Shown: positions 33,366 through 53,689, counted from the first letter of the stretch. The stretch: 64,000 nt of DNA from Candidatus Latescibacterota bacterium (GCA_963707635.1 OY970173.1:2408882-2472881); one strand, 5' to 3'. Notes: generated from the sequence alone by a model not told the origin. Made by a program: numbers and translations.

Positions 33366-36300
33366 ATGCACATCCGCCCAGTCATCGCCGCCGCCCTGGT
33401 GGCGGTCGCGCTCGCCGCCGACCTCCACGCCCAGACCCTGCCCGGGGGATTCTACGTCGAGAATGCCGCTTCCGGCGCGACTTTCGACACGCCGGTCGCG
33501 GTGGCGTTCGCGGCGGATGGCCGCGTCTTCGTGGCGGAAAAGTCAGGCGTGGTCTACGTCATCCAGAACGGGATCAAACTCGCGGCGCCGTTCATCGACC
33601 TCTCGTGGGACGTGCTGAACCACCACGATCGGGGACTGCTGGGCATCGCCCTTGACCCGAGTTTTACGACCAACGGCCATGTCTACTTCCTCTATACCTT
33701 CGACTGGAACCAGGCCGGCGACACGCAGCGCACCGACGTGCCGGGTCGCCTCGTCCGTTACACGGCGAGTACAGCCAACCCAAACCTGGCCGACATCAAT
33801 TCGCGGCTGGTGTTGCTGGGAAGCTCGTTTGCGAACGCGATTCCCGCGTGCTACTTCTCGCACGCGCCGGGTGCCCTGCGCTTCGGCACGGACGGCACCC
33901 TGCTGATCGCGGCCGGCGACGGTGCCAGCTACAACGAGGTGGACCCGGGCGGTCTGTACCCGGACTGCTTCGGGTCCGGAAAGCTCCCGACCACCCAGGA
34001 CATCGGTGCGTTCCGCGCCCAGTGGATTCAGAGCTACGCGGGCAAGATTCTCCGCGTCGATCCGGCGACGGGCAACGGGCTCCCGTCGAATCCGTATTAC
34101 ACGGGTAATGCCGCCGACATCCAGTCGAAGGTGTGGGCGTACGGCCTGCGCAACCCCTATCGTTTCGGCGTACGGCCCAACGGCAGCGGGAATCCCGCCG
34201 ACGGCAACCCGGGTTCCTTGTATATCGGCGACGTGGGCTGGAACACTTACGAAGAAATCAACGTCGCGCGCGCCGGTGGCGGCGAGAACTTCGGCTGGCC
34301 GTGCTACGAGGGCCCGAATCCAAACGGCGCCTACCAGGCCGCGAACCCCGCGCACCACGGCTGCGCGACGATCGGGACCCCGCAGAATCCGTCGCCGCAA
34401 GTCCCCCCGCTCACCTACTGGCACCACGACAACGGCGGGCTGTCGTTCCCGCCCGGTGTCACCGGCGCCACGTCGATCGGCGGCGCGTTCTACACCGGCA
34501 CGAAGTACCCGCCGTCGTACCAGGGCGCCTACTTCTACGGCGACTACTCCGGCCAGTGGATCAAGGCGCTGGTGGTCAACACCAGCGACGATTACGTCTC
34601 CCAGTCCGACTTCGGCTCGTCGATGGGAGGGATCGTCGACATTCAGTACAACCCGGTCGACCAGTACCTCTATTACATCGATATCTTCAACGGGCAGGTC
34701 TTCCAGATCCGCCACGTCGACGGAGACGCCAACAGCCCGCCAGTGGTGAGCGCGGCCGTCACGCCGCGCTGGGGCTACGCGCCGCTCCTGGTCCAGTTCG
34801 ACGGAACCGCGTCGTACGACCCGGATCAGGACCCGATCACCTTTGCATGGGATTTCGGCGACGGGGCGAGTGCCACCGGCGCCGTGACGTCCCACTCCTA
34901 CGCCACCAACGGGACCTACGTAGCCACGCTCACCGTGCGCGACGACTTCGGTGCCACCGCCACGGGGGTGGTCTCCATTTCGGTCGGCAATACCCCACCG
35001 CACGGGATCATCCGCTCCCCGGATAATGGCGCCAGCGCCTCGGTCGGTGACCAGATGCTGCTCTGGGCCCAGGCGACCGACGCCGAGTCGCCGGGGCAAC
35101 TTTCCTTCCACTGGGAAGTGATTCAGACCCACAACCATCACGACCATCCGAACTTCTTCACCGCCGACGGTCCGATCGCGCAGTTCTACATCGCGGAACA
35201 CGGACTCCCGAACGAGGTGAACTTCCTGCGCGTCGAACTGCGCGTGACCGACGCCGGCGGCCTGACCGACACCAGCCGGGTGTACATCGCGCTCAATCGC
35301 AACGGCGAGGCCGACATCACGGACGAGGGCGCGGCCGGAGCACTCGTCACTTCGCCCGGCGGGTCCGGCAGCCCCGACCTCGCGGTGATTCACGACGGCG
35401 TGTTCCCCCCGGCCGGCAGCGGCGACCCGCTCGCGCAGTACGACACGTTCACCGACGGATCGCCGCGCGCACAGGACTGGGTTGAATACACCTTCCCGGG
35501 AACGCGCTATTTCTCGAAGCTGGTCTTTCAGGAGGGAATGCATTTCCCCAACGGAGGGTGGTTCGAAGCGCCCGGAGTCGAAGTGTTTGCCGACGGTATC
35601 TGGTCACCGGTCGAGTTCCTCCAGGCGGTCCCGCCCTACCGCGGCAACGACGGGGTCAGTTACGACATTTACGCCCTCACGTTCAAGGCGCACGCCGGAA
35701 CCGGGATCCGCCTCATCGGGGCCCCGGGCGGGTCCGGCGACTACATCTCGATCGGCGAGCTCCGGGTCTTCGAGATCCCGCGCGCCCAGTTCAGCGCTGA
35801 CACCCGAGCCGGCTCCAACCCGCTCACGGTCCACTTCACCGACGAGTCGAACGTGACCGAACCCGAATCGTGGCTGTGGCGCTTCGGCGACGGCGCGACC
35901 AGCACCGAACAGCACGCTGCCCACGTGTACACGGTGCCCGGTCCCCACACGGTGAGCCTGACGGTGACGAGTGCGCAGGGCACCTACTTCGAGGAGAAAC
36001 ACGCGTACATCCTGGTGGGAGCGCCAGGGCTCGCCGCGGAGTACTTCGACGATCTCGGCCTGGCGACTCCCCGGCTGGCGCGTATCGACGCGGCGATCGA
36101 CTTCAACTGGGGTACCGCTTCGCCCGACCCGTCCATCGGCGCGGACTCGTTCTCCGTGCGCTGGTCCGGATGGCTCCAGCCGCGGTACACGGAGACCTAC
36201 CTGCTCCGCACGACGACCGACGACGGGGTTCGCCTCTGGGTTGACGGTGCGCTCGTCATCGACAAGTGGGTCGATCAGTCCGCCACGGAGTGGAGCGCGT

Positions 36301-37388
36301 CGCTTCCACTGGTCGCCGACGAGTTGCACGAGATCCGGATGGAATACTATGAGAAGGGAGGGGGCGCCACTGCACGGCTGCGATGGTCCTCGCCTGGCCA
36401 GGCGCTCGAGGTCATTCCGCAGTCGCGGCTGTGGGCGCGCGAGTGCGGAGCCGGTACCGGCGACATGGACGGCAACGGCACGCTGACCCCCGGCGACGCG
36501 TTGTGCGCGTTCAGCACATTCTTGAACGGCCAGACGGTGCCTCCCTCGTGCGACGCGGCGAATTACGACTGCGAACGGGCGGCCGCGGACACCGATTGCA
36601 ACGGCGCCGTCACTCCGGCGGATGCGCTGGCGGTCTATCAGCACTACCTCGCCGGACTCCCGCTCCAGATCTGCCTGGGACAGGCTGCGCCGGCGTCCTT
36701 CACGTCCAGCGTGGCAACGCCCCGGGTGTCGGTGGCGGTCGTGTCGTCGCCGGTCGACGGCTCGGTAGAGGTGTCGGCCACGGCGCTGGACGCGAGCGGG
36801 CTCGACGCCTTCGGCGCACGCGTGGTCTTTCCCGCCGACGAGTTCACCTTCGATCGTCTGCTGCCCTCGCCGGATACCGGCGACTGGCTGATGCTGGACG
36901 CGCGGGCCACCGTCGCCGGGTCCGCTCAGGTCGGCGGCTGCAACCGCCACGGCCTCGGCAGCGAACCCGCGGAGCTGTTCCGGGTACGACTCCTTCCCGC
37001 CGGTGCCAACGCGCAGGCGAGTCACATCGTCGTTACGGATTTCGTCGACGACCTCGCGGGCGCCGTCGTGACCGATGCCCCCCCATCCGCGGCGCCGTCA
37101 TCCGCGTTTCGCCTCCACCAGAATCGCCCGAATCCGTTCAACCCGGTCACGCGTATCTCCTTCGAAGTGCCCGCCGGCGCGGGGCGGGTGCCGGTCCGGC
37201 TGGCCGTGTACTCGGTGCGCGGCGAACTCGTGCGGGTGCTCGCGGACGGCGAACGCGCGCCCGGACCCTACGAAGCCACGTGGGACGGCCGTGACGAGCG
37301 CGGCGCGCCCGTGACCTCCGGCATCTACTTCTACCATCTGCGCGCCGGGACGTATTCCGCGTCGCGGCGCATGGTGCTGCTCAAATGA
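33366..37388 (+). CDS. 1340-aa secreted modular surface protein: PQQ-dependent sugar dehydrogenase propeller, 2 PKD, galactose-binding-like domain, PKD, PA14, dockerin-like pair, cohesin-like domain, T9SS/FlgD-type C-terminal domain
   Basis: - Signal peptide.
- Propeller: GLLGIALDPSFTTNGHVYFLYT and IGDVGWNTYEEIN...GENFGWPCYEG.
- PKD: WDFGDGASATGAVTSHSYATNGTYVATLTVRDD.
- PA14: FSVRWSGWLQPRYTETYLLRTTTDDGVRLWVDG.
- Dockerin EF-hand-like repeats: GDMDGNGTLTPGDAL / DTDCNGAVTPADAL.
- CTD: LHQNRPNPFNPVTRISFEVP...VYSVRGELVRVL...WDGRDERGAPVTSGIYFYHLRAG...RRMVLLK. Confidence 0.8.
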   Translation: MHIRPVIAAALVAVALAADLHAQTLPGGFYVENAASGATFDTPVAVAFAADGRVFVAEKSGVVYVIQNGIKLAAPFIDLSWDVLNHHDRGLLGIALDPSFTTNGHVYFLYTFDWNQAGDTQRTDVPGRLVRYTASTANPNLADINSRLVLLGSSFANAIPACYFSHAPGALRFGTDGTLLIAAGDGASYNEVDPGGLYPDCFGSGKLPTTQDIGAFRAQWIQSYAGKILRVDPATGNGLPSNPYYTGNAADIQSKVWAYGLRNPYRFGVRPNGSGNPADGNPGSLYIGDVGWNTYEEINVARAGGGENFGWPCYEGPNPNGAYQAANPAHHGCATIGTPQNPSPQVPPLTYWHHDNGGLSFPPGVTGATSIGGAFYTGTKYPPSYQGAYFYGDYSGQWIKALVVNTSDDYVSQSDFGSSMGGIVDIQYNPVDQYLYYIDIFNGQVFQIRHVDGDANSPPVVSAAVTPRWGYAPLLVQFDGTASYDPDQDPITFAWDFGDGASATGAVTSHSYATNGTYVATLTVRDDFGATATGVVSISVGNTPPHGIIRSPDNGASASVGDQMLLWAQATDAESPGQLSFHWEVIQTHNHHDHPNFFTADGPIAQFYIAEHGLPNEVNFLRVELRVTDAGGLTDTSRVYIALNRNGEADITDEGAAGALVTSPGGSGSPDLAVIHDGVFPPAGSGDPLAQYDTFTDGSPRAQDWVEYTFPGTRYFSKLVFQEGMHFPNGGWFEAPGVEVFADGIWSPVEFLQAVPPYRGNDGVSYDIYALTFKAHAGTGIRLIGAPGGSGDYISIGELRVFEIPRAQFSADTRAGSNPLTVHFTDESNVTEPESWLWRFGDGATSTEQHAAHVYTVPGPHTVSLTVTSAQGTYFEEKHAYILVGAPGLAAEYFDDLGLATPRLARIDAAIDFNWGTASPDPSIGADSFSVRWSGWLQPRYTETYLLRTTTDDGVRLWVDGALVIDKWVDQSATEWSASLPLVADELHEIRMEYYEKGGGATARLRWSSPGQALEVIPQSRLWARECGAGTGDMDGNGTLTPGDALCAFSTFLNGQTVPPSCDAANYDCERAAADTDCNGAVTPADALAVYQHYLAGLPLQICLGQAAPASFTSSVATPRVSVAVVSSPVDGSVEVSATALDASGLDAFGARVVFPADEFTFDRLLPSPDTGDWLMLDARATVAGSAQVGGCNRHGLGSEPAELFRVRLLPAGANAQASHIVVTDFVDDLAGAVVTDAPPSAAPSSAFRLHQNRPNPFNPVTRISFEVPAGAGRVPVRLAVYSVRGELVRVLADGERAPGPYEATWDGRDERGAPVTSGIYFYHLRAGTYSASRRMVLLK

Positions 37389-37398
37389 GGCCGGAGCG

Positions 37399-39225
37399 AT
37401 GAGAACGACGATCCTTTTCGCCGCCGTCGGTGTCGTCCTCGCGGCGTCCGTCGCACGCGCGCAGATTTCCGTCAACCCGGCCGCATCGACCGCCGGCTCC
37501 GGCGGTCAGTACGCCTACGTCGCGCTCGACCTCGACAACCCGGCGGGGACACCGATCGATGCGTTCGGCTTCCAGATCGCGTATCCGACGAACCTGCTCA
37601 CGTTCCAGTCGATGTCCAGCGCCGCGACGCTGACCCAGGGCTGGTTCGTCGTCTCGGGGTCCGAGAATTCCCCCGGTGTCGTGCAGGTCGGAGGCTTTCA
37701 CTCGACGGCGACCACCGGCACGGGCGTGCTCGTCTACGCGGTGTTCCTGGTGAAACCGAATGCGCTCGGCACCGGCGCCATCGCGCTGTCCGACTTCGTC
37801 GACGACTTCGCCGGTGCCACCACCGTGAACGGTGTCTTCCAGGCGGGTGTCGCGCCCGGCGCCGCGGGGTTGCTCGGACACTACTACGACAACATCAACT
37901 TCACCGGCGCGTTGCTCACCCGCGTCGATCCCGTCGTCAACTTCGACTGGGCCAGCGGCGCACCCGACCCGTCGATGGGAATCAACGATTTCTCGGTTCG
38001 GTGGACGGGCTGGGTACGGCCCGCTTTCACCGAGACCTACACGTTCTACAGCCAGACCGACGACGGCGTACGCGTGTGGGTAAACAACCAGCAGATCATC
38101 AACCACTGGGTCGACCAGTCCGTCACCGAATGGAACGGGAGCATCGCGCTCACCGCCGGAGCGCTGGTGCCGATCACGATGGAGTTCTACGAACGCGGCG
38201 GGACGGCGGTGGCGCGGCTCCTGTGGTCCTCCCCGAGCCTCGCGAAGCAGGTGATTCCCAGTTTGCGACTGCAGGCGACGCCGTGCGCGCAGGGCGTGGG
38301 CGACGTCGATGGAGACGGCCTCCTCGAGACGAGCGACGCCGTCTGCGCGTTCAGCGTGTTCCTGGAAGGCCAGCAACTCGCGCCCGGGTGTGACTATTCG
38401 ACCAACGCGTGCGAGCTCGCCGCCGCCGACGCGAACTGCGACGGCGAGGTGACCCCGGGCGATGCCCAGGCCATCGAGCAGCGGCGCGCGGCCGGCCTTC
38501 CGCCCGCCGCGTGCTTCGCCACCGCGGCGGCGCCGGCCCAACCTCTCCAGCTTGCGCTCACGCAGGATGTGGTCGACGACGCGGGTACGCCGCGCCTTCT
38601 CGTCACGATCGCGGCGCAGGATGCGGCTGGCCTCGACGCCTTCGGCGGCAGACTCGTCTTTCCGGCGGCGGAGCTAACGTTCCAACGCGTCGAGTCCGGG
38701 TATGCCACCCGCGACTGGCTCGCCGTGGACGCGCGAATCGCCGACGCCGGTCAGCTTCGGATCGGCGGGTACGAACCCGTGGTCGCGGCCGAACCCGGCC
38801 CCGCTGTCATCTGCCACCTTTATTTCGACTTCAGCGGCCCGCCCCACGTCGTCGGCGGGCTCGCTTTCTCCGATCTGGTAGACGACTTTGCCGGGGCGAC
38901 GATCGTGGGCACGGTCACCGCGGTGCCGTCGCTCACCGGCGAGTACCGACTGCACCAGAATCGGCCCAACCCGTTCAACCCGTCGACCCAGATCCCATAC
39001 GAGGTGGCGGGCCCCCGCTCGGGAGAACACGTTCGCATCGCCATCTACGACGTGCGTGGGGCACTCATCCGCCTCCTGGTCGACGCCGACCACCCACCCG
39101 GCTCCTACCTCGCCACCTGGGATGGGCGTGCGAACGACGGGGCCGAAGTGTCCTCGGGAGTCTATTTCTGCTCGATGCGGGCGGGAGGGTATGCGCAGTC
39201 GCGTCGGATGGTCCTGCTCAAGTAG
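37399..39225 (+). CDS. 608-aa secreted modular surface protein: cohesin-like, PA14, dockerin-like pair, cohesin-like, T9SS/FlgD-type C-terminal domain
   Basis: - Signal peptide MRTTILFAAVGVVLAASVARAQ.
- Cohesin-like: IDAFGFQIAYPTNLLTFQS...GVVQVGGF...GAIALSDFVDDFAG.
- PA14: FSVRWTGWVRPAFTETYTFYSQTDDGVRVWVNN.
- Dockerin: GDVDGDGLLETSDAV / DANCDGEVTPGDAQ.
- CTD: LHQNRPNPFNPSTQIPYEV...IYDVRGALIRLL...WDGRANDGAEVSSGVYFCSMRAG...RRMVLLK. Confidence 0.8.
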   Translation: MRTTILFAAVGVVLAASVARAQISVNPAASTAGSGGQYAYVALDLDNPAGTPIDAFGFQIAYPTNLLTFQSMSSAATLTQGWFVVSGSENSPGVVQVGGFHSTATTGTGVLVYAVFLVKPNALGTGAIALSDFVDDFAGATTVNGVFQAGVAPGAAGLLGHYYDNINFTGALLTRVDPVVNFDWASGAPDPSMGINDFSVRWTGWVRPAFTETYTFYSQTDDGVRVWVNNQQIINHWVDQSVTEWNGSIALTAGALVPITMEFYERGGTAVARLLWSSPSLAKQVIPSLRLQATPCAQGVGDVDGDGLLETSDAVCAFSVFLEGQQLAPGCDYSTNACELAAADANCDGEVTPGDAQAIEQRRAAGLPPAACFATAAAPAQPLQLALTQDVVDDAGTPRLLVTIAAQDAAGLDAFGGRLVFPAAELTFQRVESGYATRDWLAVDARIADAGQLRIGGYEPVVAAEPGPAVICHLYFDFSGPPHVVGGLAFSDLVDDFAGATIVGTVTAVPSLTGEYRLHQNRPNPFNPSTQIPYEVAGPRSGEHVRIAIYDVRGALIRLLVDADHPPGSYLATWDGRANDGAEVSSGVYFCSMRAGGYAQSRRMVLLK

Positions 39226-39262: not shown

Positions 39263-39338
39263 TGGTGCGAAGGGACGGAATTGAACCGCCGACACAGGGA
39301 TTTTCAGTCCCTTGCTCTACCAACTGAGCTACCTTCGC
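39263..39338 (-). tRNA. tRNA-Phe (anticodon GAA)
   Basis: Minus strand GCGAAGGTAGCTCAGTTGGTAGAGCAAGGGACTGAAAATCCCTGTGTCGGCGGTTCAATTCCGTCCCTTCGCACCA. Confidence 0.9.
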
Positions 39339-39434: not shown

Positions 39435-39473
39435 GCCACAAAGACACGGCGGGGCCCCCGAGGGGGCCCCGCC
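39435..39473 (-). terminator. candidate intrinsic terminator after the cytochrome/porin operon
   Basis: About 12-bp GC stem CGGCGGGGCCCC / GGGGCCCCGCCG (39446-39473), followed on the minus strand by TGTCTTTGTGG. It sits ~40 nt downstream of the stop at 39510. Confidence 0.4.
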
Positions 39474-39509: not shown

Positions 39510-40547
39510 CTAGCGCGAGCCCTCTCCTCCGTCTTCCTTGCGCGCCGCAATCGGTGCCGGCGGCGGCGGCGGGTTGTTGTTCAGGTAGTCGATCGCCGAC
39601 AGCAGGAGCCCGCTCATGTACTGGCGGTTGTGCACGCCGATACTCCGGTCCTCCTCGACCAGCAGGAAGTTCCAGATCGCCCCGGCCTCGTCCGAGGTTC
39701 TGGTTCCGGCCGTGGGCAAGCCGGTCGAGGCATTGAGGAAGCCCCGCCCGACGAGGAGGGTGCGCAGCGAATCCACGAGTTCGGCGGTCTCGGTCTGCAC
39801 CCCATCGATGTCAAAGTTGGTCGTGGTGCCGTGGCAAGGCACACAGGCAGCGGTGTTGAGGATCTCGCCCTCCTCGTCCACCCAGCGCATGTTCCAGGTG
39901 TGACCGCCCACCTTGCTGTTCCGCGTGTATTTCATGTGACAGTCCCAGCACCCGTTCTCGGTGGCAGAACGGTGCTCGGTTTGCTGGTACGAGTAGCCCG
40001 CATACTCGTATCCGTTCGAGCCCATGATCATGTCGCCCTGCACGCTGTGGTGGGGACCCCAGCGATTGTTGGCGATGGTGACGGTTCCGCCCTCCACGTA
40101 CGTTTCGACATTCTCGCGTGCGTGGTGGCACGAGGCGCACAGGTTTCCGAAGCCGAGGTCGAACTTGAACCCGTTCTGCAACGCCTGCGTCTCTGTCACG
40201 CGGAGTCTGAAGTCGCCGTTGGTGTGCGGCGCGTGGCAGGTGAAGCAGTGGATTGCGGTGGGGTTATCGACGTTGGCCGGCATCGTCCCGGTTTCGATCC
40301 GCGACACAAACCCCTCGCTGGTATGACACCCGTTGCACGGCGTCGTGCTGCGGTTGGTGTTGAGACTGCTCCCGTGAACGGAATGCTCCCATTGCAAGGT
40401 ATTTGCAATGATCTCCGTGTCCTGGTCCGAGTGACAGTTGAAACACGTTTGTGGAGTGGTGTCCTCGGCCACGGTCGTCACGCTACGGTCACACGCGTAG
40501 AGCGACGCCGCGGCTGCGACACACACCCAGATTCGAAGTTGTTTCAT
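39510..40547 (-). CDS. hexahaem c-type cytochrome lipoprotein (putative outer-surface component of a porin-cytochrome conduit)
   Basis: ATG 40547 preceded by a GGAGGG RBS. MKQLRIWVCVAAAASLYAC carries a lipobox. Six CXXCH motifs: CFNCH, CNGCH, CFTCH, CASCH, CWDCH, CVPCH. Pro-rich C-terminal tail NNNPPPPPAP. Confidence 0.8.
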   Translation of the reverse strand: MKQLRIWVCVAAAASLYACDRSVTTVAEDTTPQTCFNCHSDQDTEIIANTLQWEHSVHGSSLNTNRSTTPCNGCHTSEGFVSRIETGTMPANVDNPTAIHCFTCHAPHTNGDFRLRVTETQALQNGFKFDLGFGNLCASCHHARENVETYVEGGTVTIANNRWGPHHSVQGDMIMGSNGYEYAGYSYQQTEHRSATENGCWDCHMKYTRNSKVGGHTWNMRWVDEEGEILNTAACVPCHGTTTNFDIDGVQTETAELVDSLRTLLVGRGFLNASTGLPTAGTRTSDEAGAIWNFLLVEEDRSIGVHNRQYMSGLLLSAIDYLNNNPPPPPAPIAARKEDGGEGSR

Positions 40548-40588
40548 CGTGGTTTCCCTCCTGCAGCGCCGGCTCATCGCCGGCTGTC

Positions 40589-42181
40589 TCACTCCGTTGA
40601 AAAATCGTATCCGACGTTCAGCCAGACGACGTTCGCCGTGTAGTAGCGAGCGGCGACGAGGTAATCGTCGTAGTTGTAGACGTTGTACTTCGCATCGACG
40701 CTGAAACCCCGCGGAAGCGCGCAGCCGAGGTCGAACGAGAGGATCGACTTGACGATGTCCAGATCGTCGGTGATGCTCACGACGGTGACGCCGGCGCCCG
40801 CCGTGAGCCTGTCGAACACATCCGCGTGGACGCGCCCGGTGACAAAGTCGCTCTTCACGTGGTACCCACCCACGGTGTTGACATAATCGTCATCCGAATA
40901 CTGATAGCTCACTTCCACGTGGGCCGCGTCGAGGCCGGCGTCGCCCGAGAACTCGTGGTCGTAGCGGCCGTAGGCCGAGGCGTAGAAGCCATCCGCCTGC
41001 GAGCCGATATCCGGCATCTCGCGGTTGCGCTCGGCGAGGCGACCGCCCACCGTGATGCCCGTTACGGGTTTGGTTTCGATGCGCGCGTCCCAGCGGTCGT
41101 ACTCGGTGTCGCGCAGGAGCGTCTGGTCCTCTTCGTCTTCCTTGCTGCGCGTCGACCAGGAGAATCGGGCCGAAACCTTGTCCGCGCGCAGTGCGAGGGC
41201 CGCGCGGAGGTTGTCGTACGTGGTCACCGAGCGGTCGTCGTCCCACGCCTCCCAGCCGTACCCGCCCGAGAGCGTCGCGATGCGGTAGCGCACCTCGATG
41301 TCGCCGTCGTGGATATACCGGTTGGTCCGGAGATTCGTCGCCTCGTCGTCGACCTGTCCGCCGTAGAAGCGGTATTTCGCGCGCAGCGCCGGCCACAGCG
41401 CGAGCACGCCCGTGTACTGGATCGTCTCCATGTCGTACCCGAGGCCCGACTCCTTGAGTTCGTTGCGTCCGATCGACGCGCGCACCACGTGGGTGAGTCG
41501 GTCGAAGAACAGGCCCGGGACGTGCAGGTTCGCGGAATACACCCGCCCCTCGCGCTCGTTGAGCGCCGACACGTGGTCGGTCAGATTGGCGACGTCGGCC
41601 GCGATGGTCCCGCCGATGCCGTTGGACGCGCGCATCTGGGCCTCGATGCGGTAACGGTTCAGGTCGAAGTCGTAGGTCGTGCCCAGCGCGCTCTGGACAC
41701 CGGACGGGTACCCGATCCGGTCGCCCTCCCGCGTCTGGAGGCCGTAGTCGGCCGAGAGCCAGATCCACTTCGCCGGGGTGAGCGACAGCGTCGACCAGAA
41801 GTCGCGCCGCATCGCGTCCACCGCGCCCGCCGGGTCGAACACAAAGCGGCTCTCGTCGTAGCGCGACCGGAAGTGCAGCATCCCGGTACGGCGGAAGTCG
41901 AGCGTGCCGTTACGATCGTCGAGGTTGATGTCGTTGAGGTTGAAGCGAAGGTGCGTCTTCGGATTGAATCGGCCCTTGAGGTAGAGCGAGGTGACCGAGT
42001 AGCCCTCGTAGACGTTGAACGTCTCCTGCATCACGCTCTGGTCGCCGACTTCGTCCTTGACGATACCGCCCATGCGGATCCCTCCGTCCCACACCGAGGT
42101 GGAATCGGCCCGGGCGCTCCCCGCGATCAGCATCGCGCTCGCCCATGCAAGGAGAATCAGGATCCGTCTCATGGTCATCAC
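40589..42181 (-). CDS. outer-membrane beta-barrel protein (porin-like partner of the flanking multihaem cytochromes; MtrB/PioB-like role)
   Basis: Signal peptide MMTMRRILILLAWASAMLIAGSARA. 530 aa with pervasive alternating hydrophobic/polar strands rich in Y/R/D/G turns, ending ...NVVWLNVGYDFSTE. No haem or cofactor motif. Only 3 nt from the upstream decahaem gene. Confidence 0.7.
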   Translation of the reverse strand: MMTMRRILILLAWASAMLIAGSARADSTSVWDGGIRMGGIVKDEVGDQSVMQETFNVYEGYSVTSLYLKGRFNPKTHLRFNLNDINLDDRNGTLDFRRTGMLHFRSRYDESRFVFDPAGAVDAMRRDFWSTLSLTPAKWIWLSADYGLQTREGDRIGYPSGVQSALGTTYDFDLNRYRIEAQMRASNGIGGTIAADVANLTDHVSALNEREGRVYSANLHVPGLFFDRLTHVVRASIGRNELKESGLGYDMETIQYTGVLALWPALRAKYRFYGGQVDDEATNLRTNRYIHDGDIEVRYRIATLSGGYGWEAWDDDRSVTTYDNLRAALALRADKVSARFSWSTRSKEDEEDQTLLRDTEYDRWDARIETKPVTGITVGGRLAERNREMPDIGSQADGFYASAYGRYDHEFSGDAGLDAAHVEVSYQYSDDDYVNTVGGYHVKSDFVTGRVHADVFDRLTAGAGVTVVSITDDLDIVKSILSFDLGCALPRGFSVDAKYNVYNYDDYLVAARYYTANVVWLNVGYDFSTE

Positions 42182-42184
42182 CCG

Positions 42185-43138
42185 CTAGAACTGATGGCAC
42201 CCCACCACCGTGCAGCCCTGCGCCGCCAGCGAGGGGTCGAGCAGTTTCGCGTTGTCATACGAGCCGTGGACGTCCACGTGACAATCGTTGCACGGCACAC
42301 CCGCCCACGAGGTGCCATGATTCACGTTGTTCAGGTGCTTGGGCACAGCGTGACACTGCAAACACAACGCGAAGTCCGGCGATTCATAGCTCTGTTTGAG
42401 CAGGCGCGGCTGCGTCGACCCGTGTGCCGCGTGGCAATTCAAGCACCCGCCCTCTTCCGTGGAGTAGTCGACGGCCGCCTGGTGCTCGTACGGGAACGGC
42501 CCCTCGAATTGCGCGTGGCACGTGGTGCAGGTCGTCCCCGGCCCGGTGTAAACGTGCTGCTTGGAGCTCTGCGCCACCGACAGATGGCAGTCGCTGCACG
42601 CCACCACACCCTCCATCACCGGATGGTGGGACGGCATGGCAAAGTCGCCCTGCGCGGACGCGTGGCACGAAAAGCACAGCGTGGGCTGCTCGTCCTTGAG
42701 CAGACCGAGGTGGGCGCTGCTGTGAACCTGGTGACAGCCCGTACAGGAAACGTCCGCGTCCGCGTGCGGATCCCGCTCGAAGAGATTCAGCGTGTGTGGG
42801 TGCTCGTGGCAGGTCGTGCACACCGCCGTCACCGAGTCGGCTCGCATGTGGGCCGGATTGACCGCCGGGTTCTCGTCCGGGTCGTCGAGGTGCTGGTCGG
42901 TCGCCGCGCCGGCGTGGCAGCCCAGGCACGACACGACCTTCCCGGCGGCAGGATCGTGGGGAGTGCCGGCCATGGCGTGCACCTGTGATTCGTGGCAATC
43001 CAAGCACGCCTCGTCGGAAGCTGCATCGGTCTGGGTGGAACGCGCTCCACCGATCGCGAAAACGAACGCGAAACTCAAGAGGATGAGGGCGAAGGCGAAG
43101 ATGGTGCGACGAGGGTGTCTCATTGCAAGTTCTTGCAT
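42185..43138 (-). CDS. periplasmic decahaem c-type cytochrome, MtrA/DmsE/PioA-like
   Basis: Signal/anchor RRTIFAFALILLSFAFVFAIGG. Ten CXXCH motifs (CLDCH, CLGCH, CTTCH, CTGCH, CFSCH, CSDCH, CTTCH, CLNCH, CLQCH, CNDCH) in ~300 aa. CNDCHVDVHGS resembles the MtrA-family C-terminal motif. An extra CTVVGCH lies at the extreme C-terminus. The start may be ATG 43123. Confidence 0.8.
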   Translation of the reverse strand: MQELAMRHPRRTIFAFALILLSFAFVFAIGGARSTQTDAASDEACLDCHESQVHAMAGTPHDPAAGKVVSCLGCHAGAATDQHLDDPDENPAVNPAHMRADSVTAVCTTCHEHPHTLNLFERDPHADADVSCTGCHQVHSSAHLGLLKDEQPTLCFSCHASAQGDFAMPSHHPVMEGVVACSDCHLSVAQSSKQHVYTGPGTTCTTCHAQFEGPFPYEHQAAVDYSTEEGGCLNCHAAHGSTQPRLLKQSYESPDFALCLQCHAVPKHLNNVNHGTSWAGVPCNDCHVDVHGSYDNAKLLDPSLAAQGCTVVGCHQF

Positions 43139-43139
43139 C

Positions 43140-43167
43140 AGTATATTCCGGTCCGATTCTCTGTCAA
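43140..43167 (-). promoter_or_regulatory. candidate sigma70-type promoter TTGACA-N16-TATACT for the decahaem/porin/lipoprotein operon
   Basis: Minus strand TTGACAgagaatcggaccggaaTATACT inside a 199-bp AT-rich spacer. The -10 ends 1 nt before ATG 43138, implying use of ATG 43123 with a very short leader. Confidence 0.35.
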
Positions 43168-43337
43168 TAAACTACTGACTGTCCTGTATAGGTTTGCGTA
43201 GAGTTTCACAAAGAAAAATTGAATCACATATACCCATGACATTATATGCGCGCTGGCATACGGCGATCGAGGCGTGCGCGCTGAGTCGGTCTGCGTCCTG
43301 ACGCCGTCCTTCCCAACCGAAATCGGATCGGACACCG

Positions 43338-44660
43338 TTAGCGTGAATCGAGCTGCCGTATCTTGAGAAACAGCGCGAGCGCGAGGATGGTCGTAAACAG
43401 GGTCGCCATCCCGAACCCGCGCCGGCGCACGTGGAAGTCCTTGATCTGTCGGGCGGCGAGATCGAGGGCTTCGTTCGCCTTGGCGAGACCCTCCGACGTC
43501 TTGGCCCCTACCTTCTCGGGGTCGAACGTGTGCACGAGCGTTCGCGATTCGATCAGGCTCTGGTGCGATTCCTGAAGGAGGAACCCGATGTCGACGTCGT
43601 CCATGCCGATGCGCTGGACTTCGGCCTGACGGTTGAGAGCATCCTCCTGCGCCGCGGAAAGCGACGCGAGACTGACATGGATCTTCCCGGCGGTCTCGAA
43701 ACCGACGTCACCCTCCGAATGGCAATCGATGCAGACCGCGCCGCTGACGTTCCCGACCATGGAATCGGAGGTCTTTTTCACGCCATGGTTGCCGTGACAC
43801 TCCTCACAGCCATGGTAGCCCTCCTCCACGAACGCGCGGCCCATTCGTGACTCGGTGAAATACCGCATATTGTTGGCATGGCATTGTCCGCACACCTGGG
43901 TGATGGACGTGATCCCCGGCGGCGTCGCGCCGTGGTTTCCGTGGCAGTCGTTGCACGCGGGAGCACCGGTATCCTCTTTCTCGAGCAGCGCGACCCCGTG
44001 CACGCTGTGCTTGAACTCCTCGAGCTGATTGGTGGGGATGCCGTAGGGCGCCATGTACTCCGCGTCCCCGTGACACCTCCCGCACGTTGCCGGGACGTTC
44101 ATCGCGTTCACCGTCGATCGAGTGTCGGACGCGGGGAGGATTCCGTGGGCGGTGTGGCAGCTCGTGCAATCCGCGACCTTCTGGTCGTGCTGCTTCAGCT
44201 TGTGTCCGTGCACGGAGGAGGCATACTGGCTCTCCTGGTCGGTCGGAATGCGCGGCTGGTACTGCCGCATGAAGTCGATGTCCGAATGACAGCGACCGCA
44301 GAACGCGGGGATTTGTTCCTTCGAAGGGACGCCCCGAAACCCGGCCGTGGCGCTCATGGCGCGATCCTGATCGTCCTCGGCGGGGTTGCCGCCGTGACAC
44401 CCCGCGCACGACAACCCGGGCTTCATGTGGATGTCGGCCTCGAGGAAGTGCTCGGGCAGATTGTCGTCCTCGGTGTGACACGCGACGCAATGATCGACCG
44501 CGGGTTCCTTCGCCGACACTTCGGCCGCCTCGTCTTTGCGCGCTGCTTCATCTTCTTCGTCGGCCAGACCCGGGCCGACGACGAGGATCGACAGCCCGAG
44601 CCACACCACCACTGTCCACGCCCGCCCGTGGCGGGCCACGGCCGCACGACCGGTCGTCAT
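43338..44660 (-). CDS. membrane-anchored nonahaem c-type cytochrome, co-transcribed with Rieske/cytochrome b (takes the place of cytochrome c1/f)
   Basis: Signal peptide. Nine CXXCH motifs: CVACH, CAGCH, CGRCH, CTSCH, CGRCH, CNDCH, CGQCH, CEECH, CIDCH. Helical C-terminal region and terminal TM helix [22 protein letters not shown] overlap with the cytochrome b stop. Confidence 0.8.
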
Positions 44661-45781
44661 ACCAGGTACCCCCAGACGGTCATCGCGATGATGTAGAGGA
44701 TCGCGATCACGCCGACCAGCGTCATGGGCCGCACGCGATCACCCGGCCGGCGCCGGGCCTCCCAGAACGGCACCAACAGCCACGCGAGCGCCAGCAGCCC
44801 GAACCCCAGGATGCCCAGCACCTCTCCTTCCATGAAAAGCACGTGCGCGGGCAGGAGCTTGAGCGTCTGGAACATGAACATGAAATACCACTCCGGGCGG
44901 ATGCCCTTCGGGGCCGACGTGAACGGGTCGGCCTTCTCCCCCAGCTCCCACGGAAAGAAGACGGCCAGAAAAAGGAGCACGTTCAGCACCAGCAGCCATA
45001 GGAGCATGTCGCGCAGGAGAAAGTTCGGAAAGAACGGGATGGTCCTGCGGCGCGCTGGTTCGAGCCGCTGCACGTACTCGGGCTCGTGCATCCCCTGTCT
45101 CTGCACGAACAGGAGATGCGCGAACAGAATGGCCGTGAAGATGGCCGGCAAGAGGGCGATGTGAATGGCGTAGAAACGGGTGAGAGTCGCGCCGGTAACG
45201 TCCTCCCCTCCACGCAGCAGAATCTTGATGGGATTGCCCAGGAGCGGCACCACCCCCGCGATATCGGTCCCCACTTTGGTCGCGAAGAACGCCAGCTGGT
45301 TCCAGGGAAGGAGGTAGCCGGTGAATCCGAACCCGAGCGCAAGGCACATGAGCACGAACCCGGTGACCCAGGTCAGCTCCCGCGGCGCGCGGAACGCCCG
45401 GGTGAAGAACGTGCTGAACATGTGAATGAAGACGAACAAGACCATGAGGTTGGCCGACCAGCTGTGGACCGATCGCATCAGCCAGCCAAACGACACCTTG
45501 GTCGTGATGAAACGCACACTCTCGAAGGCGTTCGCTTCGTCGGGCTTATAGTAGAGAACGAGCAGAATCCCGGACGCCACCTGCACCATGAAAAGGAAGA
45601 GCGCGACACCGCCCATGTAATACCACACGGTGTGGCGGTGGACCGGCACCTGCTTGTGCCGCATGAAATCGATCAGCGGGGTGATGTGGAAGCGATCGTC
45701 GAGCCAGCGGTAGACCCGGCGGGCTGCCCCGACGGGTGCTCGGCGTTGTCGCGTGACCGAGTCTCTGGGTGCGTCAGCCAT
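44657..45781 (-). CDS. cytochrome b (fused b6 plus subunit IV type) of a Rieske/cyt b complex
   Basis: [75 protein letters not shown], then three further C-terminal helices. Confidence 0.9.
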
Positions 45782-45787
45782 CGGCGC

Positions 45788-46219
45788 TCACGCCATCCTG
45801 GAAACGAGGATTTCGCCCGCGATTACGTTGACGGCGTATTCGTCGAGTGGCCGCGGCGGCGGCCCGGAAACGTTGCGCCCCTTGAGGTCATAGAGACCGT
45901 TGTGGCACGCGCACCAGATCTGCTTGAGGTCGCCGCGGTACTGCACGATGCACTCGAGGTGGGTGCAGGTGGCGGAGAACGCGCGGAACTCGCCGGACTC
46001 CTCGCGGATGAGGATCACGGGCTTGCGGCCGAACTTCACGATTTGCGCCGTGTTGACGGCAAAGGCTGACTCGGGGCCCGCCTTGACGGCCTGCACGGTC
46101 GCCTCGGGGACTCGCGGGGGGCGCAGGTAGGAGAACACCGGGTACAACACGCTCCCCAACCACCCGAGGGCTCCGCCGGTCAGGAGCAGTTGAGTGAATT
46201 CTCGGCGCGTCATACCCAT
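45788..46219 (-). CDS. Rieske [2Fe-2S] iron-sulfur subunit
   Basis: Tat-like N-terminus MGMTRREFTQLLLTGGALG. Cluster ligand boxes CTHLEC and CACHNG. Confidence 0.9.
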   Translation of the reverse strand: MGMTRREFTQLLLTGGALGWLGSVLYPVFSYLRPPRVPEATVQAVKAGPESAFAVNTAQIVKFGRKPVILIREESGEFRAFSATCTHLECIVQYRGDLKQIWCACHNGLYDLKGRNVSGPPPRPLDEYAVNVIAGEILVSRMA

Positions 46220-46334: not shown

Positions 46335-46364
46335 TTGACAGGGCCGCCGGTGCCGTCATAGCAT
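46335..46364 (+). promoter_or_regulatory. candidate promoter TTGACA-N18-TAGCAT for the 13-haem cytochrome gene
   Basis: TTGACA at 46335-46340 and TAGCAT at 46359-46364. The -10 overlaps the first ATG (46363), so ATG 46387 (MRPPAILF...) may be the real start. Confidence 0.3.
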
Positions 46365-48519
46365 GCAGAACAGCCGCTCGTCATTCATGCGCCCTCCAGC
46401 CATCCTCTTTGGCAGCCGGCACGTGCCGCGCAACCGCGTCGTCACGGCGCTGACGCTCCTTGCGGTCACCCTCCTTGCGCCCGGGGCGCTCCCGGTCCGC
46501 GCCCAGGTGGACACCGCCGCCTGTCTCGATTGCCACGACGACGCGTCGATGAAATCGGACGCCGGGCGCCCCATCGGCGTGGTGGCGAAGGCGTTCCACG
46601 CCGGAGCGCACGGCGGGCAGGAATGCGTGGACTGCCACGCGGCGCCCGGCAACTACGACGACGCCCCCCACTACGCGAAATACACGCCGGTCGATTGCTC
46701 CCGGTGCCACGACGATGTCGGGCCGGAGTTCAAGGGGTCGATCCACGAGAGCCTCTTTACCGATGGCGACATGGCGTGCACGACTTGCCACTCGATCCAC
46801 GACCGCACCCCGACTCCGCGCGAGGCGCTCGCCGCGTGCGGCGGCTGTCACGAAGATGCCGCGGCCGACTACGCCACCAGCGTTCATCACGCGGGCCGCA
46901 AGCGCAACGGGCAGAGCGCGGCGACGTGCACCAGCTGCCACGGGAGCCACCACGTCGTCGCGGTGACCGACTCGACGTCACCGGTGCATCCACGCAACGT
47001 GCCGCGGCTGTGCGGGGAATGTCACGCCAAGGAGTCGCCCATCACCGCTGACTTCGTCCGGCTTCCGATTTCGGTACCCGCGTATCTCAAGTCGGTGCAC
47101 GGCCAGGGGTGGCAGCAGGGCAAGAAGACCGCCGTCTGCACGGACTGTCACGGCGCCCACGACTCGCGCCCCGCGTCCGACCCGAAGTCCCACATCAACC
47201 GGCTGAACGTGGCGGCGACCTGTGGACGGTGTCACGACCAGATCGGCGCTGAATTCGCAAGCTCGATCCACGGGAAAGCGGTTGCGCTCGGCATTACGGA
47301 CTCTCCGACCTGCATCGACTGCCACAACGAGCACCTGATCCAGCGACCCCAGGATCCAACCGCCGCGATCAGTCCCGAGCACCGCGCGCGCGAGTTGTGC
47401 GGCAACTGCCACACCGACCCCGAGCTGATCGCGAAGTACGGGATCGCGTCCGGAGTCGTGGAGACATACCTCGACAGCTACCACGGCTGGGCAGTCGCTC
47501 GCGGCAGCGACCTGGTCGCGACCTGCACGGACTGCCACAACGTCCACGAGATCAGAAGCCCGCTCGACTCGCTTTCGACGGTGCACCCCGCCAACGTGGC
47601 CAGGACCTGCACGAAATGCCACGCCGGTGCCACCGAGCGCTTCGCGCAGAGCTACACCCACCTGGGTGCCCTCGCGGCGCGCGGCCCGCACGGGTGGGTC
47701 CGCACGATCTATCTCTGGCTGATCGGTGCGGTGCTCGGGGGCATGGCGCTGCACAACGCCGTCATCGTCCGCCACGAAATGAAACGGCACATCGCGCACG
47801 TGCGCCGCGAGCCGTATGTCCGCCGCTGGCACAGCGCCGAGAAGATCCAGCACCTGGTCCTGTTCTTGAGCTTCGCCGGGCTGGCCGTCACCGGCTTCGC
47901 GCTGCGTTTTCCCGACGCCTGGTGGGTCCGGCTCGTGGGCCTCGAGAGCCATGAAGGGCTGCGAGCCAACCTGCACCGGGCGTTCGCGGTCGTGCTCGTG
48001 GCCTCGGCGATCTACCACGCGGCGTGGATCGTCGCCACTCGACGTGGGCGCGTCTCGCTGCGCGCGATGGCGCCGGCCTTCCACGACCTGCGCCAGGCGG
48101 GCGAGAATATCGCCTATCACATCGGCCGCCGCCCATCGCGCCCCGCCTTTGGCACGTTCGACTATACGCAGAAGGCGGAGTACTGGGCGCTGGTCTGGGG
48201 AACGGGGATCATGGCGTTGACGGGGCTCGTGCTCTGGTACCCGGCGCTGGCGACGAACCGATTCCCGGTGTGGATCGTGCGCGTCGCCGAAGTGATTCAC
48301 TTCTACGAGGCGATTCTCGCCGTTTCCGCCATCTTCATCTGGCATTTCTTCTTCGTGATCTTCCTGCCGGCGGTATACCCCATGAGTACCACCTGGCTCG
48401 ACGGCCGCATCCCCGCCCGCGAATGGAAGGAGTTCCACGCCGGGGAATACGCGGAGAAAGGCGATCGGGAAATCCTGGAACCCGGGGAGGACGATCCCTC
48501 CCCACCCGGCGGCGCGTGA
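46363..48519 (+). CDS. CbcL-like fusion: 13-haem periplasmic c-type cytochrome domain plus C-terminal dihaem b-type cytochrome membrane domain (FdnI/HydC-like)
   Basis: Thirteen CXXCH motifs: CLDCH, CVDCH, CSRCH, CTTCH, CGGCH, CTSCH, CGECH, CTDCH, CGRCH, CIDCH, CGNCH, CTDCH, CTKCH. Then ~5 TM helices with conserved His pairs: IQHLVLFLSF, HRAFAVVLVASAIYH, VIHFYEAILAVSAIFIWH. Confidence 0.8.
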   Translation: MQNSRSSFMRPPAILFGSRHVPRNRVVTALTLLAVTLLAPGALPVRAQVDTAACLDCHDDASMKSDAGRPIGVVAKAFHAGAHGGQECVDCHAAPGNYDDAPHYAKYTPVDCSRCHDDVGPEFKGSIHESLFTDGDMACTTCHSIHDRTPTPREALAACGGCHEDAAADYATSVHHAGRKRNGQSAATCTSCHGSHHVVAVTDSTSPVHPRNVPRLCGECHAKESPITADFVRLPISVPAYLKSVHGQGWQQGKKTAVCTDCHGAHDSRPASDPKSHINRLNVAATCGRCHDQIGAEFASSIHGKAVALGITDSPTCIDCHNEHLIQRPQDPTAAISPEHRARELCGNCHTDPELIAKYGIASGVVETYLDSYHGWAVARGSDLVATCTDCHNVHEIRSPLDSLSTVHPANVARTCTKCHAGATERFAQSYTHLGALAARGPHGWVRTIYLWLIGAVLGGMALHNAVIVRHEMKRHIAHVRREPYVRRWHSAEKIQHLVLFLSFAGLAVTGFALRFPDAWWVRLVGLESHEGLRANLHRAFAVVLVASAIYHAAWIVATRRGRVSLRAMAPAFHDLRQAGENIAYHIGRRPSRPAFGTFDYTQKAEYWALVWGTGIMALTGLVLWYPALATNRFPVWIVRVAEVIHFYEAILAVSAIFIWHFFFVIFLPAVYPMSTTWLDGRIPAREWKEFHAGEYAEKGDREILEPGEDDPSPPGGA

Positions 48520-52134: not shown

Positions 52135-52163
<29 letters not shown>
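49353..52163 (-). CDS. CbcL-like fusion: 19-haem periplasmic c-type cytochrome domain plus C-terminal b-type cytochrome membrane domain
   Basis: From ATG 52163 (MSATREPS...LLPIALLVPLLLL). I counted 19 CXXCH motifs, from CLECH to CRQCH. C-terminal TM helices carry His pairs: ITHLFVITSF, VIHRIAAVATFGYFSFH, IIHSDEALLAVGFIFTIH. Confidence 0.8.

Positions 52164-53689
<1,526 letters not shown>

Follow-up and report, generated by a model that had tools for sequence, protein, structure and literature searches.

The closest described counterparts of the locus reported here are the Mtr-type conduits, MtrCAB of Shewanella (PDB 6R2Q), MtoAB and PioAB. In Shewanella the genes are arranged in the order C-A-B, and MtrC, the lipoprotein cytochrome of the complex, has ten haems and four domains. 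The solved structure of MtrB shows 26 antiparallel strands, extracellular loops that reach about 45 Å, and a helix that caps the barrel and lies between the first two strands; within the complex, the C-terminal residues of MtrA and its haem A10 face MtrC at the cell surface (PMC7198977). Here we analyse a stretch of 64,000 nucleotides from a Candidatus Latescibacterota bacterium (GCA_963707635.1, OY970173.1:2408882-2472881; hereafter the window, with positions counted from its first letter), in which the minus strand between 39510 and 43138 carries a cassette of three adjacent genes, encoding in turn an MtrA-like multihaem cytochrome, an outer-membrane β-barrel and a hexahaem lipoprotein cytochrome.

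We interpret these genes as an Mtr-type outer-membrane conduit with the hexahaem lipoprotein as its extracellular terminal cytochrome, a reading to which we assign a probability of roughly 0.72. It is carried by the homology of the first protein to MtrA, the MtrB-like 26-strand fold of the barrel, the conservation of the lipobox and haem ligands in the lipoprotein, and a near-universal synteny among relatives, all of which support the porin–cytochrome module proposed in an initial annotation made from the sequence alone. Like MtrCAB, MtoAB and PioAB, the cassette combines a decahaem MtrA homologue with a 26-strand barrel that has a helix between strands 1 and 2. Like MtrCAB, it has adjacent genes and a lipoprotein cytochrome as the third component, here in the order A-B-lipoprotein. 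Rather than a new kind of conduit, the cassette is a variant on the Mtr design, and it does not overturn current understanding.

MtrAB-like clusters have themselves been reported before. In Zixibacteria RBG-1, Castelle et al. (2013) found homologues of MtrA and MtrB alongside PetAB and multihaem cytochromes (PMC3903129), and Arbour et al. (2020) described the first MtrB-like porin–cytochrome cluster in Ignavibacteria (PMC7399161). As presented in the excerpts considered here, the RBG-1 cluster shares with the window its MtrA and MtrB homologues, its multihaem cytochromes and a nearby Rieske/cytochrome b complex, and we infer that the clusters of both reports are very likely the same cassette. 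The excerpts of these two papers make no mention of a hexahaem lipoprotein, a compact 26-strand barrel or a C-terminal motif on the MtrA homologue. In a necessarily incomplete survey of the literature we found no paper on a hexahaem lipoprotein accompanying an MtrAB-like pair, on its kinship with OcwA and NrfA, on the compact barrel or on the C-terminal motif. As far as these excerpts go, what is new here is the lipoprotein partner of the MtrAB-like pair, which had gone unrecognised.

The porin–cytochrome (Pcc) conduits of Geobacter, OmbB-OmaB-OmcB and those encoded by ExtABCD, ExtEFG and ExtHIJKL, likewise combine a periplasmic cytochrome, a barrel and a lipoprotein cytochrome, and ExtC, ExtD, ExtF and ExtL are also small. 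As in the Ext clusters, a bc-type complex is encoded near the cassette, and its cytochrome b is ExtP-like (220 bits). Pcc clusters include small outer-membrane cytochromes, one of them predicted to have six haems (Shi et al. 2014, PMC4245776), so the set against which the initial annotation compared the lipoprotein (MtrC/OmcA and OmcB/OmcC) was too narrow. Pcc barrels fall far short of MtrB in size (PMC4245776), whereas the barrel in the window is modelled with 26 strands, and its periplasmic partner is of the MtrA type, not of the OmaB or ExtA type. We rejected identity with the Geobacter Pcc or Ext systems on the strand number, on a score of 16.4 bits against the ExtKL model (cut-off 250), and on the barrel having no NCBIfam match. 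The pcc cluster of Ignavibacterium album (IALB_1837-1840), with its 14-haem periplasmic cytochrome, appears to be a different system (PMC4245776).

Layout of the cassette

Open reading frame listing and direct translation place the three genes co-directionally on the minus strand. The MtrA-like cytochrome (317 residues, 42185..43138), proposed to be periplasmic and inserted into the barrel, is followed after 3 nucleotides by the MtrB-like outer-membrane β-barrel sheath (530 residues, 40589..42181). After a further 41 nucleotides, which include a GGAGGG Shine-Dalgarno sequence, comes the hexahaem lipoprotein cytochrome (345 residues, 39510..40547), the proposed extracellular partner. The open reading frame of the lipoprotein extends over 39510-40592; the actual start is the ATG at 40547, which gives the N-terminus MKQLRIWVCVAAAASLYAC and is preceded by CAGGAGGGAAACCACG. 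Gene order, protein sizes, both gaps and the ribosome binding site are all as first annotated.

The barrel is modelled as an MtrB-type sheath with short loops

The barrel protein has a signal peptide that ends in ARA (next residue D), no haem motif, and a single Cys at position 487. Its AlphaFold2 model, built from a 47-sequence alignment (predicted local distance difference test score, pLDDT, 88; predicted template modelling score 0.75), contains 26 β-strands as assigned by DSSP, where the initial annotation had set a floor of about 16 for a porin–cytochrome module. Loops in the model are of 14 residues or fewer, and a small helix lies between strands 1 and 2. When the model was compared with the PDB using Foldseek, the best match was MtrB (6r2q_B, E 5.1e-15, template modelling (TM) score 0.72), which stood eight orders of magnitude in E ahead of the next structural matches, TonB-dependent receptors and LptD (E about 1e-7, TM up to 0.53).

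By this model, the barrel is a 26-strand MtrB-type sheath with its loops pared away. A narrower pore with fewer strands was considered and rejected on the 26 strands in the model. The protein is about 120-170 residues shorter than MtrB because its loops are short, the number of strands being the same; the barrel is indeed short, as had been noted, but it is not the reduced-size sheath that was proposed.

Sequence comparison gives a different picture from fold comparison. The window barrel has no sequence match in Pfam, NCBIfam or the PDB, and two barrel-family profiles (A1 and A3) retrieved nothing relevant among PDB chains, MtrB included, so MtrB was seen by fold comparison only. The MtrB_PioB family (PF11854) did not match the window barrel even at E 10; it gave weak, sub-threshold matches to 1 of 47 close relatives and 8 of 40 diverse genome-derived relatives (best E 3.2e-5), and three of these, inspected singly, scored 16-19 bits against a cut-off of 23. 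A word-indexed search returned 55 relatives of the barrel, all unnamed and some from Candidatus Krumholzibacteria, and exhaustive searching of 1.8 billion representatives with a profile returned 183, with lengths of about 504-557 residues among those whose match covers almost the full profile. The N-terminal CXXC motif of Shewanella-type MtrB is missing from the window barrel, as first annotated, Cys 487 being its only cysteine. The motif is not a defining one for the wider MtrB family, as MtoB and PioB are likewise not known to carry it.

The MtrA-like cytochrome and its C-terminal motif

Judged by its sequence, the 317-residue protein is clearly a divergent homologue of MtrA. Its match to MtrA (6r2q_A, E 8.7e-21) spans all ten haem motifs. 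It also matches the DmsE family of NCBIfam (TIGR03508) at E 1.5e-45 and 155.7 bits, below the curated cut-off of 192.2, and this shortfall makes it a divergent member of the MtrA/DmsE group.

The protein had been described as decahaem, and it does contain ten CXXCH motifs; what was overlooked is an additional C-terminal motif, CTVVGCH (residues 309-315; 42194..42214, minus strand). A C-terminal C-Xn-CH motif is present in all 76 syntenic MtrA-like homologues (loci L001-L084), about 20-25 residues past the tenth haem motif, in the form CX4CH in 59, CX1CH in 15 and CXXCH in 2. Shewanella MtrA has no such extension: the chain of the S. baltica protein (6r2q_A) lacks the motif and stops 2 residues beyond the aligned region. 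As the C-terminus of MtrA and haem A10 face MtrC, an extension at this point would be well placed to serve as an eleventh haem site or as a docking element for the lipoprotein, and the motif is possibly one or the other. Cytochromes c3 do carry haem c at CX4CH sites. We know of no role for CX1CH as a haem-attachment motif, and its presence in 15 homologues means that the idea of an eleventh haem may be wrong.

The true start of the gene may be the second ATG, at 43123 (MRHPRR...), in which case the leader would be very short. A promoter-like −10 hexamer ends 2 nucleotides 5' of the annotated ATG; it belongs to a sigma-70-like sequence, TTGACA-16-TATACT (43140..43167, minus strand, 11/12), found by consensus scan and a pattern match only, which lies in the AT-rich gap of 199 nucleotides 5' of the cassette.

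The hexahaem lipoprotein family

The third protein has six CXXCH motifs, a lipobox (LYAC, with Cys19 as the lipidated residue) and a poly-Pro/AARKEDGGEGSR tail, features that had all been read correctly at the outset. In the AlphaFold2 model (pLDDT 81.6) the tail is disordered, with pLDDT below 50. Across 133 aligned family sequences the lipidated Cys is kept in 127 (95%), the six haem motifs are 100% conserved, and six His residues outside the motifs (58, 108, 166, 192, 216 and 306) are 99-100% conserved. This corresponds to one distal ligand per haem, and the sequence fits a protein with six haems, all bis-His coordinated, that transfers electrons rather than one that is catalytic. The sixth haem motif takes the form CX4CH in Zixibacteria and Ignavibacteria. 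The family comprises at least 489 clusters at 90% identity, whose members have no database name, are called 'hypothetical', or are labelled, wrongly, as a nitrite reductase c552 subunit.

Outer-membrane cytochromes of the MtrC/OmcA/UndA group hold ten or eleven haems in four domains, two pentahaem and two of β-barrel type. Membership of the MtrC family was rejected, since the protein has six motifs in 345 residues and Foldseek retrieved no MtrC-family structure for its model. An OmcS-like hexahaem identity was likewise rejected, OmcS being absent from both the PDB profile search (E up to 1) and the Foldseek matches (E up to 10). These results support the statement in the initial annotation that the lipoprotein is neither an MtrC/OmcA-type decahaem nor an OmcB-type dodecahaem protein. 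The further suggestion of a new family holds in that the family is unnamed and non-MtrC, but it is not without kin. The MtrC/MtrF domain II/IV family (PF22113), which represents one pentahaem-type domain, matched the window protein marginally at 30.8 bits (cut-off 30) and weakly matched 52 of 52 family members tested, in their N-terminal half (best E 5.6e-11), matches that are partly driven by haem-motif spacing.

Among solved structures, the best relative is OcwA. The family profile matched OcwA of Thermincola potens (6I5B) at a whole-sequence E of 2.5e-7, with significant alignment only for residues 202-326, a region that includes a GVHN motif and long helices. OcwA and OmhA of Carboxydothermus (6QVM) are surface reductases of Gram-positive bacteria and are alike with the lipoprotein in its C-terminal third; OcwA and the lipoprotein are also both remote structural kin of NrfA. 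OcwA has nine haems, some with open or Met coordination, and OmhA has eleven. Unlike either, the lipoprotein has six haems that are apparently all bis-His, is lipid-anchored in a diderm, and is linked to a barrel. The profile gave weaker matches to NrfA (E about 1e-3, to 5e-3) and OmhA (E 0.04). In the Foldseek search of the lipoprotein model, the matches were NrfA and octahaem nitrite reductases (TM 0.32-0.40, probability up to 0.99), and OcwA was not among them.

Extended forms of the lipoprotein occur in some Zixibacteria, Ignavibacteria and FCB-group genomes. Here an insertion of about 340 residues with 6-8 extra haems, giving 11-14 CXXCH motifs in frame, separates the hexahaem core from a conserved anchor peptide, C-[DE]-R-x-V-T (L033:5897-8020, L040:5912-9028, L065:5861-7930 and L084:6143-7984; also L041, L060 and L077). 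The conservation of the anchor suggests a role in sorting or docking.

Enzyme or relay, and on which side of the membrane

Several of the observations made above weigh against a surface-exposed Mtr-type conduit: the window barrel is without a sequence match, a proportion of the C-terminal motifs are CX1CH, the weak structural matches of the lipoprotein point to periplasmic nitrite reductases, and the residue that follows the lipidated Cys in the lipoprotein family is Asp, Glu or Ser. The last two of these bear on alternative roles for the lipoprotein.

Instead of a simple relay, it could be an enzyme that belongs to the NrfA/octahaem-reductase superfamily and has nitrite, hydroxylamine, sulfite or the like as its substrate. 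Down to E 0.06, Foldseek returned nothing but NrfA and octahaem nitrite reductases, and NrfA sequences appear at E 1e-3 to 5e-3 in the profile search. The Cytochrom_C552 family (PF02335) matches at 24.2 bits, just over its cut-off of 24.1, and is matched by 29 of 52 members; JGI labels some members 'formate-dependent nitrite reductase cytochrome c552 subunit'. OcwA itself reduces nitrite and hydroxylamine in vitro. The similarity is, however, confined to between 56 residues (the span of the PF02335 match) and about 130 residues at the C-terminus, and the TM scores reach only 0.32-0.40. The catalytic haem signature of NrfA and the octahaem nitrite reductases is not found, there being no CXXCK in the protein, and with six haems and exactly six invariant His outside the haem motifs, no coordination site is obviously left open. 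An enzyme for a soluble substrate would also leave the strict linkage to the MtrAB-like pair unexplained. We consider an enzymatic role very unlikely; homology to a periplasmic enzyme, raised at the outset as a possible objection, extends only to a remote resemblance to NrfA.

Alternatively, the lipoprotein could face the periplasm, on the inner membrane or the inner leaflet of the outer membrane, and feed electrons to the MtrA-like protein, whose tip would then be the only extracellular redox site. In E. coli, Asp after the lipidated Cys leads to inner-membrane retention, a rule not established for these phyla. The acidic or Ser residue at this position favours a periplasmic location only by appeal to a sorting rule that is specific to enterobacteria. 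With such short extracellular barrel loops, the cytochrome tip and its C-Xn-CH motif could be directly exposed, and the reduction of extracellular substrates is expected to be within the reach of MtrAB by itself (PMC7198977). Set against this, the lipoprotein has as its best homologue a surface reductase, OcwA, and the extended lipoproteins with 12-14 haems resemble outer-surface cytochromes. Many genomes carry the cassette with no inner-membrane partner nearby, and a dedicated periplasmic lipoprotein donor is without precedent in Mtr or Pcc systems. A periplasm-facing lipoprotein is thus unlikely, if less so than an enzyme, and exposure at the cell surface remains the reading we prefer.

Conservation and distribution of the cassette

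Genomes were scanned with one genome per GTDB species, taxonomic labels being given for the best 80 loci and synteny assessed from loci with at least 2.7 kb upstream. Relatives of the lipoprotein are encoded in 193 species. The best 80 loci comprise 22 from Zixibacteria, 20 from Ignavibacteria, 9 from Krumholzibacteria, 7 from Eisenbacteria and 18 unlabelled, with one each from Latescibacteria, GN15, the FCB group and Vicinamibacterales.

The genes for the MtrA-like cytochrome, the barrel and the lipoprotein follow one another in this order, all on the same strand, in 65 of 67 loci, which span Krumholzibacteria, Eisenbacteria, Zixibacteria, Ignavibacteria and GN15; a further locus has a split barrel and another an orphan lipoprotein. 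Shared gene order in relatives, on which the initial annotation had made its proposal depend, is therefore well established. The sole exceptions to an intact cassette are an Eisenbacteria locus (L029), in which the orphan lipoprotein has no barrel or MtrA-like gene within 7 kb, and a Zixibacteria locus (L059:5321-6924), in which the barrel lies in two open reading frames through a frameshift or assembly error.

Genes for a Rieske protein, cytochrome b and nonahaem cytochrome lie directly upstream of the cassette in three loci (L007-L009), as they do in the window. They occur elsewhere in the locus in 8 more and are absent from most. As the cassette travels as a unit, both with and without these genes, it is a self-contained module that often lies beside inner-membrane quinol-oxidising complexes.

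Neighbouring genes in the window

All 65 CXXCH motifs of the 64-kb window fall within 39.5-53.7 kb. Upstream of the cassette and on the same strand, positions 43338-46219 encode an unusual bc-type complex made up of a Rieske protein, a b6-type cytochrome b and an anchored nonahaem cytochrome c. The nonahaem cytochrome (43338..44660, minus strand), with a signal peptide, nine CXXCH motifs and a C-terminal membrane helix, is likely the c-subunit of this complex; its gene shares a stop-start overlap with that of cytochrome b. The latter (44657..45781, minus strand; 374 residues; PF00033, E 2e-53) has a fused C-terminus resembling subunit IV, and in NCBIfam it scored 249.8 bits as cytochrome b6 and 220 bits as ExtP, both under the cut-offs. 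The Rieske [2Fe-2S] protein is encoded at 45788..46219 on the minus strand (PF00355, E 8.5e-14).

Beyond these genes, and divergent from them, a plus-strand gene (46363..48519) encodes a fusion of a 13-haem cytochrome c with the membrane domain of an FdnI/HydC-type cytochrome b (13 CXXCH; PF01292 at residues 488-667; TIGR01583, E 1.4e-15), relatives of which adjoin the cassette in at least 10 other loci. A second fusion of this type, with 19 CXXCH motifs, is encoded at 49353-52394 on the minus strand. The architecture of both recalls that of Geobacter CbcL. A NapC/NirT-family cytochrome is also found among the multihaem open reading frames at 39.5-53.7 kb. It is plausible that these neighbouring genes and the cassette together form a complete route from quinol to the cell surface.

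On the other side, a G+C-rich hairpin on the minus strand (GGGGCCCC-CTCG-GGGGCCCC, 39451..39470), read from the sequence, lies 40 nucleotides 3' of the lipoprotein stop codon and is a possible terminator ahead of a tRNA-Phe gene (39263-39338) that lies beyond it, 3' of the cassette. The hairpin was not called by a terminator scan because its T-run is weak. Further along, two large secreted proteins (33366-37388 and 37399-39225, both plus strand) share a common C-terminal domain and both end in RRMVLLK. The second, on which this was tested, has an FlgD_ig match, and it also has a PA14 domain. Both are probably secreted or displayed at the cell surface and equipped with a sorting domain, and they are unrelated to the cytochromes.

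The G+C content is 0.625-0.64 over 40001-46000, which covers the cassette and the bc-type genes, versus 0.66-0.71 in most of the window. This dip may reflect either the composition of haem-rich proteins or horizontal acquisition.

Proposed route and direction of electron flow

In the arrangement that we infer for this organism, electrons would leave the quinol pool, probably through the Rieske/cytochrome b/nonahaem complex or the CbcL-like fusions, and would be passed to the MtrA-like cytochrome. With its ten haems, and possibly an eleventh at the C-terminal tip, this protein would thread the 26-strand barrel, which would insulate it from lipid. The hexahaem lipoprotein would dock on the extracellular mouth of the barrel in the place that MtrC occupies, and could from there serve acceptors that are insoluble or unable to permeate the cell, among them Fe(III) or Mn(IV) minerals, humics and partner cells.

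The same architecture might instead be dedicated to inward flow, oxidising Fe(II), minerals or a cathode in the manner of MtoAB and PioAB. Electrons would then enter the Rieske/cytochrome b complex, from which the downhill path leads to reductases of oxygen or nitrate and the uphill path runs in reverse. The position of that complex directly upstream of the cassette, in the window and in L007-L009, is consistent with this scheme, and bc complexes do work in the electron chains of Fe(II) oxidisers such as Acidithiobacillus. To our knowledge, however, MtoAB and PioAB work without a lipoprotein cytochrome partner, while reducers of solid phases have one. Cyc2 and oxygen reductases have been reported in Krumholzibacteria genomes (PMC7914226). 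For the MtrAB/PetAB cluster of Zixibacteria, Castelle et al. favoured a role in oxidising iron because homologues of extracellular cytochromes were stated to be lacking (PMC3903129); yet a conserved lipoprotein cytochrome is present in this cassette. Mtr complexes are also reversible, so the direction of flow is not readable from sequence, which counts against a reading that depends on one direction. We regard dedicated inward flow as doubtful, though less so than a lipoprotein facing the periplasm, and favour a conduit that ends in a surface-exposed hexahaem cytochrome.

Significance

Sediments, aquifers and the deep subsurface harbour Krumholzibacteria, Eisenbacteria, Zixibacteria and Ignavibacteria in abundance, and the role of these groups in iron cycling is at present deduced from partial marker hits. 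A conserved lipoprotein cytochrome beside MtrAB-like genes removes the main published reason for an oxidation-only reading of such clusters. Databases give the three protein families either no name or a wrong one, and the standard MtrB/PioB model yields no hit above its cut-off, so a three-gene signature would improve annotation. With a combined length of about 1,190 residues, the three proteins are also very compact, which makes them attractive for structural work and for the engineering of electron conduits.

It is conceivable, though less likely than not, that the cassette represents a distinct and ancient branch of the Mtr type, found in the FCB group and allied candidate phyla. Here the barrel would have been cut to its 26 strands, an eleventh, atypically attached haem would sit at the extracellular tip of the MtrA-like protein, and the surface partner would have been drawn from the NrfA/OcwA lineage and not from that of MtrC. 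If this is true, the final step of extracellular electron transfer would have been solved here independently, and these widespread uncultured phyla would be mineral reducers as well as oxidisers. The three-gene signature offers a concrete, testable marker of extracellular electron transfer in several abundant uncultured phyla.

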